Part shown: in pieces, positions 19,420-26,724 of the stretch
Layout: every line of letters begins with the position of its first letter
How positions within the stretch are numbered: the first letter of the stretch is position 1
Virus record (IMG/VR): IMGVR_UViG_3300030330_002808
Coordinates: 1-64,000 of that record
Strand: one strand, 5' to 3'
Length of the DNA: 64,000 nt
DNA from: an uncultured virus (IMG/VR IMGVR_UViG_3300030330_002808)
Lineage: Duplodnaviria; Heunggongvirae; Uroviricota; Caudoviricetes
Position numbers and translations under genes: made by a program
Notes under the pieces: model-generated
What the model saw: only the letters and a program-made list of their open reading frames with translations
Databases searched by the model: none
Told to the model about the DNA's origin: nothing

Positions 19420-20114
19420 TATATACTCGTTGGGTAAAAGGATTGTGGAGTTATAAATGTAGAAGCTCTTTGACCATCTTCTTCAAGAGCTCTTTTTAAT
19501 TCATCTTCATAAATTATTTTATTCTGTTGAACAAGTTGGGGACTTTTTTTCATTGAAAGATAATAAGCTAAACCAGCACACATGCATGGTAAAAATCTGT
19601 ATGCGACATCTGCTTGGTCTGTATATGCTCCCGCATCTTCTATTCTTTTTATTACAAAATATTTTAAAACAGTATACGTATTTAAATCTGGTGTTTGGTA
19701 TAAATTAATTACTGGTGTAGTTTGTCTATCAACATAATATTGTGATGGTGTCCCTGTTTCAAATTTATTAGGAATAGCTGCGTATGCAGATCTATCTATT
19801 TTAGATAATGATATATCTTGTGTATTAGAAGTATTAGATGCAGCAGCAGTTGAAGATATGAATGCCTCAAGCACATCATTAACATCTGATGAAACTGTAT
19901 AAGTAGCTTGTCCTGCCACTAAAGTATTTTCATCTTGTTCAACCTTCCAAAGATGTATGCCTCTATTACCCCACTCTGCAAATAATAAGTTAAGAGATCT
20001 TCTAGCAGATTTTAAATCATAGCCTGAACTAGTTACAATTGCACATCTCTCGTATGCCTCTTGTATAATGTCATCTATATTTAAATCAAATCCTGTAGTT
20101 CCTGATGTAGCCAT
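19419..20114 (-). CDS. putative head-tail adaptor / tail tubular protein A-like
   Basis: ARRSLNLLFAEWGNRG and GTPSQYYVDR motifs. Confidence 0.65.
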   Translation of the reverse strand: MATSGTTGFDLNIDDIIQEAYERCAIVTSSGYDLKSARRSLNLLFAEWGNRGIHLWKVEQDENTLVAGQATYTVSSDVNDVLEAFISSTAAASNTSNTQDISLSKIDRSAYAAIPNKFETGTPSQYYVDRQTTPVINLYQTPDLNTYTVLKYFVIKRIEDAGAYTDQADVAYRFLPCMCAGLAYYLSMKKSPQLVQQNKIIYEDELKRALEEDGQRASTFITPQSFYPTSI

Positions 20115-20476
20115 TATAATATATCCTTATAGTAATCCATTAATCCACCGCCTTTTTTCTTAACAACATTTTCAAGTGCTTTTGCTTGTCCCGCATGTGC
20201 CTTTGATGCTTTTTTTAATTTTGCAGCTACACTTTTAATTGTAGACTCACCACCATCTGATAATGTCATTACTCCTTTTGTAGCTTTACCATAACTTTTA
20301 AATATATCACTTATTCTACTACCAACTTTAGGTTTTGATTTTGGTAATTTACTTTTATCTCTTCTTTCGGCCGCATCTGCTTTATCAAAAGCTTTCATTG
20401 CTTCACCTTTAGAAATTACTTTTCCTTTTTTATCTTTATAAACTACACCTGCTTCTTTATTTTTAATTTTTGTCAT
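20114..20476 (-). CDS. basic modular protein ending GGGLMDYYKDIL
   Basis: Lys-rich. Shares its C-terminal module with 30364..31248. Confidence 0.65.
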   Translation of the reverse strand: MTKIKNKEAGVVYKDKKGKVISKGEAMKAFDKADAAERRDKSKLPKSKPKVGSRISDIFKSYGKATKGVMTLSDGGESTIKSVAAKLKKASKAHAGQAKALENVVKKKGGGLMDYYKDIL

Positions 20477-20766
20477 GTTTTAAATCCTTTTAACATATCT
20501 CCATAATAATTTACCAAACTATCATTACTCACTTTTTTTCCCGCTATTTCAGATTTCATATAAGAACCAATATATTTATCTTTCTGTGCATCTCCGGGAG
20601 CCTTACTTGTAGTTTGACTGAACATTGCACGTCCCATAGCTGCTTTTTCAACACCTTTTATTTTGCCTTTATTTTTAGTAGCATAAAATATAGCAGTGCC
20701 TTTTTTCTTACCGTATTGATCCTGCATAGAATCCATAATTTTTTTACCTTTTTTATTTAATGGCAC
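20473..20766 (-). CDS. basic small protein
   Basis: GTG start with AAGGAGG RBS. MPLNKKGKKIM...YGKKKG...FYA. Confidence 0.7.
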   Translation of the reverse strand: MPLNKKGKKIMDSMQDQYGKKKGTAIFYATKNKGKIKGVEKAAMGRAMFSQTTSKAPGDAQKDKYIGSYMKSEIAGKKVSNDSLVNYYGDMLKGFKT

Positions 20767-20906
20767 TATACCTCCTTTTTAGCGGCCGCTTTGAGATCAT
20801 GTGTCTCCTTTTTGCGGTTGTACAACTTCTTAGAGTTTAACACTTTTGATGCGAATGATCTAGACCTTACGAGTTTTGCGAATGGATTCTTTACCTTTTT
20901 TTGCAA
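20766..20906 (-). CDS. small basic protein (46 aa, ...KNPFAKLVRSRSFASKVLNSKKLYNRK...)
   Basis: Read by hand. TTG start; stop overlaps the next start. Confidence 0.45.
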   Translation of the reverse strand: MQKKVKNPFAKLVRSRSFASKVLNSKKLYNRKKETHDLKAAAKKEV

Positions 20907-21144
20907 TGTTTACTACCCCTGTTTTACCCATTACTTTAGCTCTTTGCTCCATAACAGTTAAGATTTGTATTTTTCTCGCAAATGGTTTAGATATCTTTTT
21001 AACTTTTGCAACAGTCGCACGAGCATCAGCAGGAGTTGCAAACTTAATTTTAACAGTATCTCTAGGATTCTCATCAGTATATAATCTCCTATCTGACCCT
21101 TTAGGTTTTTTACCAGTTCCAACTAATGGATCTCTTTTTTTCAT
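20860..21144 (-). CDS. basic 94-aa protein, paralog 1
   Basis: Close paralog of 32377..32661. Confidence 0.75.
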   Translation of the reverse strand: MKKRDPLVGTGKKPKGSDRRLYTDENPRDTVKIKFATPADARATVAKVKKISKPFARKIQILTVMEQRAKVMGKTGVVNIAKKGKESIRKTRKV

Positions 21145-21146
21145 AA

Positions 21147-21620
21147 TTATAAGTCTGTAGCGTTTCCTATCACAGGTTTATATTTAGTTTTACCATCTTC
21201 TTTGTATGCTCTCAACAATTGTTTTCTAGGATTTTCAGCCACCCAAGAACAATGAATCCACCCGCTGTTGGGTTCGCCTGGAGTAAAAAATTCGAGAATC
21301 ATCTGGTCATACTGAAGGTTTGCCTTAATCCAATCAAAAACTTCAGCATTGCTAGTGCCTAAACATTCGAAATCGACCGCCTCAGCTTTGGTATGTTGTG
21401 AATTTAAACTACTACCTATTTTTAAGCATAGCTCAGGGGAACGAAAGCAGCTCGTTACCGTAACTCTACCAAAGTGATCACGCACTGGTTGTAGAATATT
21501 TTCACAGAGTAATTTTAATTTTTCTATTTGATCTGCGTTTGGATTATTATCAATTCCAAGTCTGATGGCTGTGTCTGATTTAATTAGTTCTGAGAGGCTA
21601 AAGTTACGTGTCAATTTCAT
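21147..21620 (-). CDS. peptidase M15 (D-Ala-D-Ala carboxypeptidase-like) endolysin
   Basis: SCFRS...SQHTKAEAVD...WIHCS zinc-binding motifs. Confidence 0.85.
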   Translation of the reverse strand: MKLTRNFSLSELIKSDTAIRLGIDNNPNADQIEKLKLLCENILQPVRDHFGRVTVTSCFRSPELCLKIGSSLNSQHTKAEAVDFECLGTSNAEVFDWIKANLQYDQMILEFFTPGEPNSGWIHCSWVAENPRKQLLRAYKEDGKTKYKPVIGNATDL

Positions 21621-22257
21621 CTTTTTCCTCCATTTGATAAAACATTTTATCTGAGTCTTCTGTTACCATTTTCGTAGCTTCCGCATCCCAGTAAGTAGTT
21701 TGGACTTTATAATCTGGCCAACTTGTGTCAGTAGTAAAACTATTAATGTGCCAAAGAAGGCGATTGTTAGGCTGAGCTGCGTAATTACCGTTATTAAGAG
21801 CCAGTATATGTGCACACTTATGTTCTTGAGGAATTTCAGAATGCTCAGTATCCAATATGTTAGTATCTGGATGAGCCCAATCAATCGTGAATAAATATTG
21901 TCCATGATAAAACTTTTTATCTAATCCTAAAAATTTTCCGTTTACACCATCCAACCAATCAAAGCAATGAACACTAGGCCAATAACTAAAACAATTCCAC
22001 AGTTCCAACTGCTGCGTTGACATATCAGGCACTTTGGTTCTGTCATACGATTTTTGGAAAAACGCTGAGATAGGCAGTCTCCAATAACACGCACCGTTGG
22101 GTAACATGATATTAAATAAGATTGCACGACCTGAAATAGATGTGATACCAAAGATAACACACTCTTCAGTTTCTCCATGATGCTCTTTAAGATCATACAA
22201 ATACTCCTTTCTTAATTTACAATATATTGGAGGAATGTTAGCATTTAAATAAGCCAT
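21604..22257 (-). CDS. hypothetical phage protein
   Basis: 217 aa ORF (MAYLNANIPP...EHKCAH...AAQPNNR) overlapping the endolysin start. Confidence 0.7.
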   Translation of the reverse strand: MAYLNANIPPIYCKLRKEYLYDLKEHHGETEECVIFGITSISGRAILFNIMLPNGACYWRLPISAFFQKSYDRTKVPDMSTQQLELWNCFSYWPSVHCFDWLDGVNGKFLGLDKKFYHGQYLFTIDWAHPDTNILDTEHSEIPQEHKCAHILALNNGNYAAQPNNRLLWHINSFTTDTSWPDYKVQTTYWDAEATKMVTEDSDKMFYQMEEKDEIDT

Positions 22258-22466
22258 TAATCTAGTATAAGTTTTTTTATACTTTTTTCACCCATATAAA
22301 TTTCAGTTTCCGCTTTACTTTTTATGCACTTATAAGTCACATTTGGTGTATACTGTCTCTCCGCGTGGCGCTTCCCGCGAAGGCATGCGGCCATCGACTT
22401 TTGTATACGATGCTCTGAAATTTCTGCTCCGTAAAACATAATTAGGGCTACCACAGTCTCTATCAT
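22257..22466 (-). CDS. small protein with hydrophobic N-terminus and two Cys
   Basis: 69 aa coupled ORF in the lysis region. Confidence 0.6.
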   Translation of the reverse strand: MIETVVALIMFYGAEISEHRIQKSMAACLRGKRHAERQYTPNVTYKCIKSKAETEIYMGEKSIKKLILD

Positions 22467-22633
22467 AATATCTTACCTTTATTTTCACCTTCTTTTACTA
22501 CATACTTTTGTGTGCCGTATTTACCAATCTCAACCTCTTTTTTTAATTCTTTTGAGAGTGTTCTTAATTTATTTTCTCTATTTATCTCAGCTATGTAGTT
22601 CAATACTTTTCTAGTTACTCGTCCCGTTGCCAT
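22463..22633 (-). CDS. hypothetical protein
   Basis: Short ORF (MATGRVTRK...) coupled to the next gene. Confidence 0.45.
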   Translation of the reverse strand: MATGRVTRKVLNYIAEINRENKLRTLSKELKKEVEIGKYGTQKYVVKEGENKGKIL

Positions 22634-23037
22634 TGTATCTAATCTCTCTGTTTGCATCTTTTAATTTTTCGATATCAGATAGAACCTTATCCATCTGTTT
22701 TCTTAAAAATTCTATGTTTACTTTATTTAAAGCCATGTCTTCTACATGTTCGTTAATCTTATCCGTGGTCTTGTAAAGATCCTCGATCATCATAAATTGT
22801 TCTGAGTCAGCCGGAAGCGAGCCGAAGTTGCCCCCTCGGCCACTTGATACGGAACTCCGTATTTTCGACCAATTCTTTTTCCATTAATTGTAATCTAGTG
22901 TCAGCAATATTCAGACGTTCTATAATCTGGAAATAGCCCATGGTGCCGAGTGCTACGATTACGATCAGCGAGGCAACCGTTTTCATAGGCATCTGCACGG
23001 CTGCCTCTTCCGATATGTTGAGTGGTTTTTTATTCAT
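22611..23037 (-). CDS. membrane-anchored coiled-coil protein split by a +1 frameshift at about 22824
   Basis: ORF 22807..23037 (transmembrane segment) continues in the +1 frame as GSLPADSEQF, in frame with ORF 22611..22793. Confidence 0.65.
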
Positions 23038-23040
23038 AAA

Positions 23041-23274
23041 TTATTTTGGTAAAGAATTTGTTAGCCATTCATGTGCTTTTTTAAAAGGCCATTTAATTAT
23101 ATTCCATACCCATTTTACTATTTTTTTTGCCATAGTTTCCTCCATTACTCCTTCTGCATGAATACAATTTATACAATTACAATTTAGCACCATGCATTGA
23201 TTAGTATTAACATATGTACCTACACCCTTACAATGACAAGGGTGTCCACACATAACACAATTTAACATTTCCAT
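23041..23274 (-). CDS. small Cys-rich protein
   Basis: CxxCGHPCHC...C...CxCxxC followed by an amphipathic Trp-rich tail. Confidence 0.5.
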   Translation of the reverse strand: MEMLNCVMCGHPCHCKGVGTYVNTNQCMVLNCNCINCIHAEGVMEETMAKKIVKWVWNIIKWPFKKAHEWLTNSLPK

Positions 23275-23855
23275 CTTCTCCTTGCTTGTCGTAATCTTGA
23301 GTTTGGATCTTTAGCAGCTTTAGGAAATTTTTTCATTTGTCCAAGTGATCTCGCACAAAAACTTTTTCTACGTTTTGCATCTTTGGAACCTGGTTTTACC
23401 TTTCCCGTTACAGCTGTTTTAAGTTTAGATCCTGGATTAGCTTTCCTATACGCAGCAACACCAGCTGCCGTCATACCTGCACCTTTTTCAGTTGGTCTAA
23501 AATTTTTTTTGTTTCTAGGAGGCATAGTATCGCCACCTCTTTTAAATGTTTTTTTAAAGAAAATACCTTTTTGTTTTTTTCCTATATTTAACCCTATTTC
23601 TATTCCCTTTCCCGTTTTAGAATCTTTTTTAACTTTTTGTAACGTTAATGAAGGATTAACTATATCTTTTTTATCTTTTGTAATTTCTTTTAAGTCTTTA
23701 ACAGTAAAGTAATCTTTTTTTTTAAATACGTTTATACCTGTATCAATAGATAAAGATGTGTAGTCATCTGGACTTTTACCAACAACTTTACTTACAACAC
23801 CAACAGGTTTTATTTGTTGAATATCTTTTTTATCAAGTTTTTTAAAATTTGACAT
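23262..23855 (-). CDS. basic modular protein
   Basis: After FKRGG comes a GAGMT...NPGSKLKTAVT...RRKSFCARS...SRLRQARRRWKC domain. Confidence 0.7.
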   Translation of the reverse strand: MSNFKKLDKKDIQQIKPVGVVSKVVGKSPDDYTSLSIDTGINVFKKKDYFTVKDLKEITKDKKDIVNPSLTLQKVKKDSKTGKGIEIGLNIGKKQKGIFFKKTFKRGGDTMPPRNKKNFRPTEKGAGMTAAGVAAYRKANPGSKLKTAVTGKVKPGSKDAKRRKSFCARSLGQMKKFPKAAKDPNSRLRQARRRWKC

Positions 23856-23856
23856 A

Positions 23857-24150
23857 TTACGTAAAAGTTATAGTTACACCACCAGTGCCACCTATTGTTG
23901 CATGAATACCATCTTGAAACAAAATACCAGATCCTGGAATAAACATATCCAAACCTTCCTCACCAAATAGAAAAGTTGCTATTGTTGTACCAGACGCTCC
24001 TCCACTTTTAAAAATTATAGATCCACTCGCACTATTACCTTTTGCTTGTATTGAAGTAAGTCTAGCTCTTTTAGTTGTAGGAACCATTTGAGCAGTGCTT
24101 GTAGCGTGAGCAACCGATTGATCACTAACAAATGAAGAACCGCCTGGCAT
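23857..24150 (-). CDS. small virion protein, paralog of 24154..24483
   Basis: Shared pattern PGSGILFQDGI vs PEDGILFPKGI. Confidence 0.6.
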   Translation of the reverse strand: MPGGSSFVSDQSVAHATSTAQMVPTTKRARLTSIQAKGNSASGSIIFKSGGASGTTIATFLFGEEGLDMFIPGSGILFQDGIHATIGGTGGVTITFT

Positions 24151-24153
24151 TTA

Positions 24154-24483
24154 TTATCCGTTTGTTGTAGTTAAATTAGGCCCTGAAAATTTATCTGTTA
24201 ACAAAGTATAAGCTGCAATATTGGTTTTTGTTTTGCAAAAAATACCTTTAGGAAACAGAATTCCATCTTCAGGAAAATTAAAATTAATTACATCACCTGT
24301 TGGAACATCTGCTAAAAATAAAGTTGTTCCTGAATTAGATGTAGTTGTTAATTCTAATACCCCAGCACCACCACCATTAGATGCAATAATTATACCTCTT
24401 AGCCTTACAGGTGGAGCTATAATAGCTGTAGCTCCAGCTGCTGCATCTGATCTTGTTGCTTGTATATCAGTTTTTGCTGCCAT
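24154..24483 (-). CDS. small virion protein
   Basis: AAGGAG RBS. Beta-rich composition. Confidence 0.65.
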   Translation of the reverse strand: MAAKTDIQATRSDAAAGATAIIAPPVRLRGIIIASNGGGAGVLELTTTSNSGTTLFLADVPTGDVINFNFPEDGILFPKGIFCKTKTNIAAYTLLTDKFSGPNLTTTNG

Positions 24484-24499
24484 TTAATCTCCTTAGTTT

Positions 24500-24519
24500 G
24501 TGGCTCCCGAAGGAGCCAC
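24500..24519 (-). other. intergenic UUCG hairpin
   Basis: GTGGCTCC-TTCG-GGAGCCAC on the minus strand with no U-tract, so a stability element or weak terminator. Confidence 0.6.
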
Positions 24520-24529
24520 TAGTTATTTA

Positions 24530-25084
24530 TTAGCTCCAAGGATTAGCAAATGTTCCATTACCAATCAATTGTGCACTTATTTGCCAGTTTAAAGCAGAGA
24601 TTGCTCTACATTGAATTTGAGCTCCCATAAGTCCACCTTTTGTGGTTGCAGTTAATGTTAAAGTATCTGTTGAACTTCCATTAAATGCTGTTACTGCTCC
24701 TGGATCTGTAGCCGTATTATTGTAAATTGCCATTCCTCTAAATACATCAGCAGATGAATGACCAGCCGCAGTTCCTGCATTTATTGTAACAGTATTTGAA
24801 CCCGTAAGGTTTTCAATCATGATAAACTCATACATAATTCCGACATTGTTGGCAGAATTTGGGTCACCCCCTGGTCCTGATGAAACAGAATCAGCTGTGC
24901 CTACGATAGCCGGTAAATTAAAAACAGTAGTAGCATCAGTAATTGTTAATACTTTACCTTGGTATTTATTTATATCACTAGCACTATCAGATACAGTACC
25001 TGTTATTGCTTGTGCCATATTAGGACCCGAACCTAAAAACCCGTTAAGAGATCTTACTGGACCCGTAAATGTTGTTTTAGCCAT
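24530..25084 (-). CDS. putative capsid decoration/structural protein
   Basis: MAKTTFTGPVRSLNGF N-terminus, AGGAGG RBS, downstream of MCP. Confidence 0.65.
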   Translation of the reverse strand: MAKTTFTGPVRSLNGFLGSGPNMAQAITGTVSDSASDINKYQGKVLTITDATTVFNLPAIVGTADSVSSGPGGDPNSANNVGIMYEFIMIENLTGSNTVTINAGTAAGHSSADVFRGMAIYNNTATDPGAVTAFNGSSTDTLTLTATTKGGLMGAQIQCRAISALNWQISAQLIGNGTFANPWS

Positions 25085-25094
25085 AATTTCCTCC

Positions 25095-25172
25095 TATGTG
25101 TATAGCCGTTTTCATTATGTCGTCTCTATACCGTCTGCCTAGCCAGTCGACATAATTAATTTATACTAGGTT
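25095..25172 (-). ncRNA. candidate structured 5' leader RNA (double pseudoknot)
   Basis: Three interleaved helices between a sigma70-like promoter and the RBS (see findings). Confidence 0.5.
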
Positions 25173-25177
25173 TTTTT

Positions 25178-25206
25178 ATTTTATATTATTAAGTGTATTA
25201 AGTCTA
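25178..25206 (-). promoter_or_regulatory. sigma70-like promoter
   Basis: TAGACT-17 bp-TAAAAT on the minus strand. Confidence 0.6.
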
Positions 25207-25746
25207 CTAGTCCCAATTCTTTACTTCTTCCATATTAAAACTTATTCCATATTTTGGTTCATCACTATAATTTGGAGAACACCCGTGCTTTAAAAATGGA
25301 CTAAATAAGGCAAAAACACCTTTTTCCGGCTTTACTTCTTGATTTATATCTGGAAATTTTAAAAGTTGTTCTGATGCATTTAAATATATAACTCCAGACC
25401 AAAGGGATGATTGATGGTCGTGATAGTTTGTTTTTTGACCTTGACGCATTTCCATCCCCCAAGACTCAGAAAGCCTATAAGGATTAAATTTTAAAAAACT
25501 ATCAACGTATTCTATTAATTTACTCATAATTATATTAAATTTTAAATCTTTGTTGAAAAAAAACCATGAAGTCATAGGGCTTTTTACGTTAGTTTTAAAA
25601 TTCATGTTATCCTCATTAGTAATCCCATTTTTTATTTTATTAATAAAATATTCTGAGTCTATATCGATAACACCTTGTATGAAGAAATAGTCGACTTCTA
25701 TTTTCCTGTTAAATACTTTGTTAATAATCACATTTTTATTTAACAC
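25207..25746 (-). CDS. 2OG-Fe(II) oxygenase-like protein
   Basis: HDH...WSGVIY...FSPFLKHG...ISFN motif. AT-rich. Confidence 0.7.
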   Translation of the reverse strand: MLNKNVIINKVFNRKIEVDYFFIQGVIDIDSEYFINKIKNGITNEDNMNFKTNVKSPMTSWFFFNKDLKFNIIMSKLIEYVDSFLKFNPYRLSESWGMEMRQGQKTNYHDHQSSLWSGVIYLNASEQLLKFPDINQEVKPEKGVFALFSPFLKHGCSPNYSDEPKYGISFNMEEVKNWD

Positions 25747-25781
25747 AAAAAAAAGGGCGGTGCAAATAAATACACCGCCCT
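25747..25781 (-). terminator. rho-independent terminator after MCP
   Basis: AGGGCGGTG...CACCGCCCT stem followed by a T-tract on the minus strand. Confidence 0.85.
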
Positions 25782-25806: not shown

Positions 25807-26724
25807 TTAGCTAGTTGGTAAATTTCCATTACCAAATACACATCTTGGATCAGAAAATCCAAAAGAGTATCTTTCTCTAGCTTTAAATCTAACGTTACCA
25901 GTATCGAAGTCACCTTCCATCGCTGTTTTGATTGGTGATCTAACAAACATTTTGAATCCGTTAGGTACATCAGTCAATAAGAAGTAAGAGTCAGTATCAG
26001 TTAAGAAGTTATTTATTACATAACCTTCTGGTACCATACCCATGCTTCTAATAGCGTTGATGTCATTATCAGCAGTCGCTGTTCTCATAGGTGACTTCAT
26101 TAGTCTCTCAGCAGTAAATTGTAATTCTTTTGGAATTATCATTTTTCTACCTTGAGTTGCTATTCTAAGTCCTCTTTCATCTACGAACCCAGCAATGTCA
26201 ATTAATGACTGCTCAAGTGAAGTTTCGTTAAGGTCTGCAGCTGTAGCAAGAACATTTGAAAAAGTTCCGCCTGTTGCAAGTGGGTGAGCATTTCCGATTA
26301 AGGATTCACCGTCACCACCTGTTACAGTTGTAACTTGTGCATTGTTCAATACGTTTGCAGCTTTAACTTGCTTCGTATTTGCCATAGATCTTGCAAGAGC
26401 TCTTGTGTATCTTGCAGCTAATCTATCATATAGGTTATCTTCGATTGCTTCCTCAGTGATTGAAAATGCAAGCGCGATTGTTTCGTGTGTGTATCTTGCT
26501 GTGAAAGTTTCACCTGCTTGATCAAACACTACTCCAGCACCTTCTTGTTTAACCGGTGCAGAAGCAAATCCGCTTAACATTACTTCCTCTTCGAAAGCTC
26601 TGTCAGATGTTTCAGTATTATAAATCTCAGCATGCTGATTTTCATATCTACTGTACTCCAGGCCGAATAAAGCATTCAAACCTGGCTCTAGTTCTTTAAC
26701 TAGTTGTGATCGTGATATTGCCAT
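25807..26724 (-). CDS. major capsid protein
   Basis: MAISRSQLVKELEPGLNALFG...FKARERYSFGFSDPR, as in abundant marine pelagiphage capsids. Strong RBS, followed by a terminator. Confidence 0.9.
   Translation of the reverse strand: MAISRSQLVKELEPGLNALFGLEYSRYENQHAEIYNTETSDRAFEEEVMLSGFASAPVKQEGAGVVFDQAGETFTARYTHETIALAFSITEEAIEDNLYDRLAARYTRALARSMANTKQVKAANVLNNAQVTTVTGGDGESLIGNAHPLATGGTFSNVLATAADLNETSLEQSLIDIAGFVDERGLRIATQGRKMIIPKELQFTAERLMKSPMRTATADNDINAIRSMGMVPEGYVINNFLTDTDSYFLLTDVPNGFKMFVRSPIKTAMEGDFDTGNVRFKARERYSFGFSDPRCVFGNGNLPTS

Follow-up and report, generated by a model that had tools for sequence, protein, structure and literature searches.

The leader pseudoknot of T4 gene 32 and the coat-protein hairpin of MS2 are autogenous translational operators of phages. 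The SAM-II, SAM-V and preQ1-II riboswitches are compact pseudoknotted leaders that act on translation and feature a 3'-most strand located at or in the Shine-Dalgarno sequence, and in small off-switch riboswitches such as SAM-II and the preQ1 classes the Shine-Dalgarno sequence is held in a marginal closing helix. The described motif closest to the element reported here is Mu-gpT-DE, which reportedly comes from the Weinberg 2017 survey. It is an orphan motif that Rfam types as an sRNA (RF03012, gathering threshold 49 bits). The name and the accession appear in PMC7657543, and the motif is not named in the main text of PMC5737381. A literature search for pelagiphage with pseudoknot returned no paper, and a search for pelagiphage with riboswitch returned, judged by titles and abstracts, none on this element.

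The element is located in a 64,000-nt stretch of DNA from an uncultured virus (IMG/VR IMGVR_UViG_3300030330_002808), which is referred to here as the window. The window is a pelagiphage-like genome, and its capsid region is 83% identical over the aligned part to Pelagibacter phage HTVC023P. On the minus strand, the gene order is the major capsid gene, an intrinsic terminator, a 2OG-Fe(II) oxygenase gene, a gap of 122 nt, and a gene for a 184-aa protein. The major capsid gene (25807..26724) is of the Mu gpT / Phage_capsid_4 type based on matches to phrog_371 and PF25209, and its Mu-like_gpT score of 19.6 bits is just below the cutoff of 20.1. A terminator scan placed the intrinsic terminator 3' of this gene at 25754..25781. 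The oxygenase gene (25207..25746), which lies between the capsid terminator and the leader, is separate from the RNA element and is missing from the closest relatives, L002 and L003, in which the capsid terminator is directly followed by TGTATAAT and the leader. Despite the oxygenase insertion, the window retains a -10-like hexamer, TAAAAT, with its usual spacing of 7 nt to helix 1 of the leader. The leader is followed by a Shine-Dalgarno sequence, AGGAGG (25090..25095), the ATG start codon (25084-25082), and the downstream gene (24530..25084), which encodes the 184-aa protein with the N-terminus MAKTTFTGPV. Directly 3' of the stop codon of this gene lies a GC-rich hairpin (24500-24519) with 8 perfectly matched bp and the loop UUCG; it lacks a U tract on the gene strand, and its role may be in RNA stabilisation or processing and not in termination.

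The leader spans 71 nt (25170-25100) and is built from three main helices of 6, 9 and 6 bp, which were found exactly where the original prediction had placed them when the minus strand is read. The 5' arm of helix 1, CCUAGU (25165..25170), pairs with GCUAGG (25138..25143) and includes one G-U pair. It is followed by linker L1 (25157..25164), which is AU-rich and varies in length and sequence in the alignment, and by the 5' arm of helix 2, AUUAUGUCG (25148..25156), whose final G is part of the first of three GAC triplets. This arm forms 9 bp with the 3' arm, CGACAUAAU (25114..25122). The segment at 25145..25147 comprises the junction nucleotide A25147 and the 5' side of a fourth helix, C25146 and U25145, whose loop contains the 3' arm of helix 1. 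On its 3' side, helix 4 has A25136 and G25135, and the junction nucleotides A25134, C25133 and G25132 come next; this segment (25132..25136) contains the second GAC triplet plus a G, which are invariant in alignment A2, described below. Helix 3 is formed by GUAUAG (25126..25131) and CUAUAC (25100..25105). Between the helix 3 and helix 2 arms lies the junction AGA (25123..25125), which together with C25122 makes the third GAC triplet, is invariant in A2, and is retained in the Rfam Mu-gpT-DE consensus. A second variable linker, L5 (25106..25113), separates the 3' arms of helices 2 and 3 in the alignment.

The 3' arm of helix 1 and the 5' arm of helix 3 are both located inside the loop of the 9-bp helix 2, as the original prediction had it, and helix 3 does end just before the AGGAGG sequence (25100 versus 25095, 4 nt apart). 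The fold that was described earlier is correct in its three helices and incomplete in that the fold is richer, with a fourth helix of 2 bp, for which three pair types are seen, and a three-way junction. Helix 4 and the three GAC triplets generate this three-way junction, which features three unpaired adenines and, on the sequence, may also include a C25133-G25124 pair. The arms of the junction are the 9-bp helix 2 and two short hairpins; the 5' tail captures the loop of one hairpin by forming helix 1, and the 3' tail captures that of the other by forming helix 3. Nearest-neighbour energies in the window are -7.7 kcal/mol for helix 2 and -8.5 kcal/mol for helices 1 and 3 together. For the window alone, the minimum free energy of the single sequence has a z-score of -1.72, and 9 of 200 shuffled sequences fold as well or better. 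In the window alone the fold and the promoter signals are no better than chance, and it is the comparison with relatives that makes the element real. Pairing of the helix 2 3' arm with AUUAUG at the start codon was also considered; it is possible in the window and unconserved in class 2 (see below), and it was rejected.

The comparison revealed that the three helices are conserved with compensatory changes in more than 200 related phage leaders. A protein-based search found the element upstream of the gene in 80 of 80 viral contigs, out of 114 confirmed relatives, and a search with the RNA core pattern, which gave at least 120 loci, found it in 119 of 120 among the matches listed, the remaining one being a chance match in GC-rich DNA. 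When the core pattern was run against 185,579 species genomes, a single true element (L279) was present among the 120 matches listed; the other matches listed are chance occurrences in GC-rich DNA and were set aside, the 14-base pattern being too short for that collection. L279 is an 18.8-kb contig in a marine alphaproteobacterial single-cell assembly and is probably phage DNA inside or attached to the sorted cell. The cultured phages HTVC023P and HTVC027P both carry the element.

Alignment A2 was made with MAFFT from 150 trimmed elements, 141 of them distinct. Covariation in homologs, which had been proposed as a check, was found for helix 2 in A2 with a score of 0.545, compared with 0.179 for column shuffles (0 of 500 reach the observed value) and at most 0.12 for slid partners. 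Helix 2 is 94% paired, both sides change in 8 of its 9 pairs, and up to 6 pair types occur per position. At least 5 contiguous pairs were present in helices 1 and 3 in 150 of 150 aligned homologs, with 19 arm-pair types for helix 1. Helix 3 is 100% paired in both main classes, and helix 1 is 99% paired in class 2 and 85% paired in class 1, for which a few registers are shifted by MAFFT. In 87 extended leaders chosen by the protein N-terminus only, 34 distinct arm pairs were found for helix 1 and 31 for helix 3. The covarying pair of helix 4 (A2 columns 40-50) is 100% paired: 85 sequences have G-C at this position, 52 have U-A and 4 have C-G. It is also A-U in GC-rich relatives, and an invariant C-G pair adjoins it. 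The closing G-C pair of helix 2 is replaced by A-U in at least 5 leaders, by U-A in phage DSL-LC04 and by G-U in one leader. A third closing pair, between the C of the second GAC triplet and the G of the third, is U-A in L380 and in phage 023Pt_psg01, and is only suggestive because these are just two independent cases. Swapping of helix partners between random sequences was an uninformative control, since two arm types dominate and 63% of the swaps still give a helix 1 of at least 5 bp.

These data bear on the reading in which the inverted repeats are protein-binding DNA sites or a chance arrangement and not RNA. That the fold in the single window is not significantly more stable than its shuffles would agree with this reading; however, the arm sequences change freely while complementarity is kept, and helices 2 and 4 contain 71 G-U pairs versus 1 A-C pair, an excess that identifies the fold as RNA on the gene strand. 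The reading was refuted by the covariation pattern and retains virtually no probability. The invariant junction spans AT-rich pelagiphages, the roseophage CRP-902 and a freshwater phage, and every helix changes sequence across this range. A covariance model of helices 2 and 4 found one copy in the 64-kb window (65.3 bits, E 2e-15), and a full-model search gave no second copy there, the next match scoring 15 bits.

The extended leaders fall into two main classes, which differ by an exchange of sequences between helix 1 and helix 3 (the window versus L004, L007, L041 and L073). Class 1 features CCUAG:CUAGG in helix 1 and GUAUAG:CUAUAC in helix 3, and class 2 features ACUAUAC:GUAUAGU in helix 1 and CCUAG:CUAGG in helix 3; the sequence of helix 2 is free to vary. 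The freshwater phage DSL-LC04 (L324 4968-5033) has a divergent extended leader, scoring 29.5 bits, in which the three helices are kept by compensatory changes. Phage 023Pt_psg01 (L323 5441-5518) keeps helices 1-3 with longer and different junction strands, and two of its three GAC triplets are altered in a pairwise compensating manner.

The original prediction could not match the element to a named family, and this statement holds for the window itself and not for its compact relatives. Rfam gave no match over the whole window at the gathering threshold and none in the region 24900-25400 at E up to 10. Relatives were collected by the N-terminal coding pattern of the downstream gene alone, which gave 120 loci with 118 distinct leaders; only 27 of the 120 contain the canonical core, and nearly all have a structured leader. 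About 18 of the leaders are compact, and 15 of these, including that of Roseobacter phage CRP-902, are RF03012 at 49.9-72.5 bits. The RF03012 model detected none of the extended forms tested, the window included. The compact and extended leaders nevertheless have a common grammar, which reads outer helix, A, C-hairpin-G, AC(G/A/U), six bases, A(A)GA and outer helix. This grammar fits 104 of the 118 leaders versus 21 of 2360 shuffled sequences. It also fits 2 of the 118 leaders when they are reversed and none of their 118 reverse complements, the last value again arguing against a DNA-level explanation. The window junction reads G/A/CU...AG/ACG GUAUAG A/GA/C, so that an outer helix, an A, a hairpin and an ACR-N6-A(A)-GA strand of 12-13 nt are all present. 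Additionally, three hybrid leaders (L345, L403 and L440) combine a 3' strand of the compact type with the helix 1 pseudoknot.

The two forms contact the ribosome-binding site in different ways. In the compact leaders (18 of 18), 3-5 nt of the Shine-Dalgarno sequence belong to the 3' strand of helix 2, whereas helix 2 of the window ends at 25114 and does not include it (25095-25090). In nearly all of 207 extended leaders it is helix 3 that ends between 6 nt before and 3 nt inside the Shine-Dalgarno sequence, and the approximately 25 apparent outliers among the 207 are mis-registered palindromic arms. Profile searches do not bridge the forms. The first extended-form model missed all of the compact leaders. 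An iterated model, R2, was built from 53 diverse extended leaders; it recovered each of the 13 extended leaders that had been held out (E at most 2e-4), and among 19 compact leaders it found only L382, with an E value of 0.11, next to decoys at 0.44 and 0.76. A profile walk from extended to compact forms with R2 therefore failed. Pairing of a GCC strand of the compact leaders with AUGGC had mixed support only and was not retained.

The element is best read, on its sequence relationships, as a new double-pseudoknot branch that is related to Mu-gpT-DE and lies outside the family as Rfam defines it. It is assigned as a branch because the compact leaders at the same position are RF03012 and have the same junction, and the proposed kinship rests on gene order, the common junction grammar and the hybrid forms. 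Like Mu-gpT-DE, the window element is located downstream of a Mu gpT-type major head gene and directly before a gene of the MAxTTFxGPV type. It also has the same junction, with an outer helix, a single A, and an inner hairpin that opens with C and closes with G. The window differs from Mu-gpT-DE in that the outer helix is 9 bp rather than 4-5 bp and excludes the Shine-Dalgarno sequence, the inner hairpin is cut to 2-3 bp and its loop is captured by the 5' arm, and there is a third helix, formed between the 3' junction strand and the nucleotides that precede the Shine-Dalgarno sequence.

The 5' end of the transcript is predicted at approximately 25171-25170, at helix 1. The TAGACT hexamer (25201..25206), the 17-nt spacer and the TAAAAT hexamer (25178..25183) that were named earlier are present at 25206-25201 and 25183-25178; as a signal they are no better than chance, the arrangement being one of 37 such matches in 10 kb where 34.1 are expected, and the 9/12 consensus match of the -35-like hexamer carries no more weight when taken alone. 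In class 1 relatives there is a TATAAT-like box, usually directly after a terminator, and 7 nt is the most frequent distance from its end to helix 1; class 2 has the layout TTGCAC-17-TATAAA-6 nt to helix 1, and GC-rich relatives have TGTATATT at a similar distance from helix 1. The element is present in metatranscriptome assemblies from many studies, and its stretch was found in 14 runs recorded as RNA. Metatranscriptome contigs cross the predicted start in 3 of the 4 runs examined, and one contig stops inside the element; contigs cannot show starts, and this evidence is neither for nor against the promoter.

A -10 box located 6-7 nt before helix 1 in both classes would put helix 1 at about +1. 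This arrangement is consistent with a constitutive knot that acts like a 5' cap without any ligand, as a stabiliser and insulator for high late expression. In such a role, helix 1 would bury the 5'-terminal bases and guard the mRNA from 5'-end-dependent decay, and an unstructured ribosome-binding site would be presented just past the rigid body. The helices of the extended form are long and stable, the Shine-Dalgarno sequence is free in the window, and the gp62 homolog of phage HTVC027P (see below) is strongly expressed late in infection, all of which agree with such a role. A helix 2 of 8-11 bp with two pseudoknots may always be folded, which would fit it as well. However, the element occurs as a single copy per genome, always before the same gene, and the capsid gene, which is more abundant, never has it; the conservation of at least 7 invariant junction bases across very distant phages exceeds what a stabilising hairpin needs. 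Additionally, the closing helix of the compact form, with 4-5 bp that hold the Shine-Dalgarno sequence, looks inhibitory rather than protective. A constitutive role is considered possible but rather unlikely.

The same predicted start would make the leader the first RNA transcribed from the promoter, at the head of a run of same-strand late genes, as would be expected of a processive antitermination RNA of the HK022 put type, in which the nascent fold binds RNA polymerase and allows it to read through late-operon terminators. Such terminators would have to lie ahead; a simple and crude scan of the gene strand from 20000 to 25000 gave no terminator-like site. This role would not require a fixed contact with the Shine-Dalgarno sequence, or its inclusion as in the compact forms, and antitermination is regarded as highly improbable.

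The element precedes a single gene family, with the N-terminus MAxTTFxGPV, at every locus examined. In 149 distinct gene starts after the RNA, the residues A2, T4, F6 and G8 are kept in 97-99% while synonymous sites are free, which rules out an RNA-level constraint on the first codons. Three loci (L385, L417 and L422) have a MAxTTF-type gene start with no leader of this kind found upstream. The family keeps approximately 16 N-terminal residues (MAxTTFxGPVxSxNGF), and the remainder of the protein diverges beyond recognition by blastp (loci L081-L200), with protein lengths from about 130 to 223 aa. The combination of a conserved N-terminus and a hypervariable body fits a virion-anchored protein with an exchangeable outer domain. 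The 184-aa protein has no Pfam or PHROGs match, the best hit in a PDB sequence search (E 0.13) is noise, and a search of the protein atlas returned unnamed viral clusters only. An AlphaFold model of the protein features a beta-sandwich with a pLDDT of 73. Among known structures it comes closest to the capsid spike of Pseudomonas phage Pa223 (Z 9.3, rmsd 2.4 over 98 residues, Foldseek E 3e-3), with tailspike and baseplate domains ranking next, and all of these scores are only slightly above the usual background. The homolog in HTVC027P, gp62, carries the element and is classed as Late in Table S3 of PMC12753301, in which it has a TPM of 28,568 at the last time point versus 74,585 for the capsid gene. 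The homolog of phage DSL-LC04 starts with MATTTFSGPV and was annotated as a cement protein by its depositors; the word cement is absent from the main text of their paper. The 184-aa protein is probably a late, virion-associated protein such as a capsid spike, a cement protein or a fibre-like protein, and the earlier label of a virion gene is plausible.

By comparative sequence evidence, the element is a genuine 5' leader RNA, structured, cis-acting and about 71 nt long, that belongs to an extended, double-pseudoknotted branch. With the predicted start, the capture of the hairpin loops by both tails would lock the first nucleotides of the transcript and those directly preceding the Shine-Dalgarno sequence into one rigid body. 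The original prediction of a compact cis-regulatory RNA stands as far as the element is compact, conserved and pseudoknotted, lies between a promoter-like site and the ribosome-binding site, and is tied to one gene family; for the kind of regulation, that prediction named a translational operator, a riboswitch-like element or a ribozyme. The favoured reading, to which a probability of roughly 0.45 is assigned, is that the leader is a translational operator of a head-accessory gene and is run by a protein, with a constitutive stabiliser and a riboswitch as the main competitors. Translational control that is specific to this gene and exerted via the invariant junction is suggested by three features: a contact with the ribosome-binding site that is fixed, a single copy, and a strict linkage to one gene. 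The junction would be recognised by a trans-acting factor, which would block or release access of the 30S subunit to the adjacent ribosome-binding site. The factor would more likely be a late phage protein, possibly the product of the gene itself, than a metabolite, and the operator would set the amount of the accessory protein relative to capsid assembly. The conservation of the RNA together with the protein N-terminus is the one hint of an autogenous operator.

The proposed operator resembles those of T4 gene 32 and MS2 in that a gene-specific structured RNA is located beside the ribosome-binding site of a phage gene whose product is needed in set amounts. It differs from them in that the conserved N-terminus of the downstream protein does not resemble an RNA-binding segment; it is almost free of basic residues, which makes it a poor candidate for binding RNA. 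A further point against an operator is that the Shine-Dalgarno sequence in the window lies 4 nt outside of the fold, so that the fold alone need not block it.

A small molecule or an ion could take the place of the protein. In a riboswitch, the junction with its invariant adenines would bind the ligand, the helices at the Shine-Dalgarno sequence would be stabilised, and translation would go down. The element is small, its covarying helices surround invariant unpaired bases directly on the ribosome-binding site, and the marginal closing helix of 4-5 bp in the compact form contains the Shine-Dalgarno sequence, as it does in small off-switch riboswitches. The window leader is likewise compact and pseudoknotted with its 3'-most strand at the Shine-Dalgarno sequence, as in SAM-II, SAM-V and preQ1-II; in contrast to these single H-type knots, it is a three-way junction with two loop-tail pseudoknots. 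Several observations weaken this alternative. The gene under control is a structural one that offers no metabolic hint at a ligand, the stability of the extended forms seems too high for switching, phage 023Pt_psg01 keeps all of the helices with altered junction strands, and no known riboswitch model (SAM-II, SAM-V, preQ1-II and similar) matches in the Rfam scan. A riboswitch is considered unlikely. The broader proposal, in which the three-adenine junction would be a ligand pocket and the whole Mu-gpT-DE superfamily a new class of riboswitch or allosteric ribozyme, is given the same low standing.

A self-cleaving ribozyme, in which the knotted fold would cut itself and leave a processed mRNA 5' end, is a very doubtful reading, although less so than antitermination. 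The strands follow the order A B A' C B' C', which is similar to that of the pistol ribozyme, in which, as here, a hairpin whose loop pairs downstream is located inside a second helix, and the compact pseudoknotted fold with about a dozen invariant bases in a phage is also reminiscent of small ribozymes. The window element nevertheless lacks the third stem of pistol, and its conserved bases differ. No Rfam ribozyme model (pistol, twister, hatchet, hammerhead or HDV-like) matches it, even at E 10. There is no pile-up of contig ends or joints inside the element, contigs being weak evidence here that cannot show RNA ends, and a promoter right at helix 1 leaves nothing useful to remove by cleavage. 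A protein-run translational operator is favoured over each of these catalytic and ligand-binding roles.

The finding changes how Mu-gpT-DE is viewed. An orphan Rfam motif that is filed as an sRNA downstream of a capsid gene appears to be a promoter-proximal 5' leader that is seated on the ribosome-binding site of one conserved head-accessory gene, and the motif gains a large, previously undetected double-pseudoknot branch. For RNA-motif searches in general, it illustrates that the covariance model of a family can wholly miss its most elaborate relatives. The compact three-way junction is well suited to structure determination, and since HTVC023P and HTVC027P are cultured and carry the element, experiments are possible. 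Pelagiphages of the HTVC023P type infect SAR11, which is among the most abundant groups of marine bacteria. If the junction were a ligand pocket after all, very abundant ocean phages would time or dose a capsid-accessory protein by means of a host metabolite or ion.
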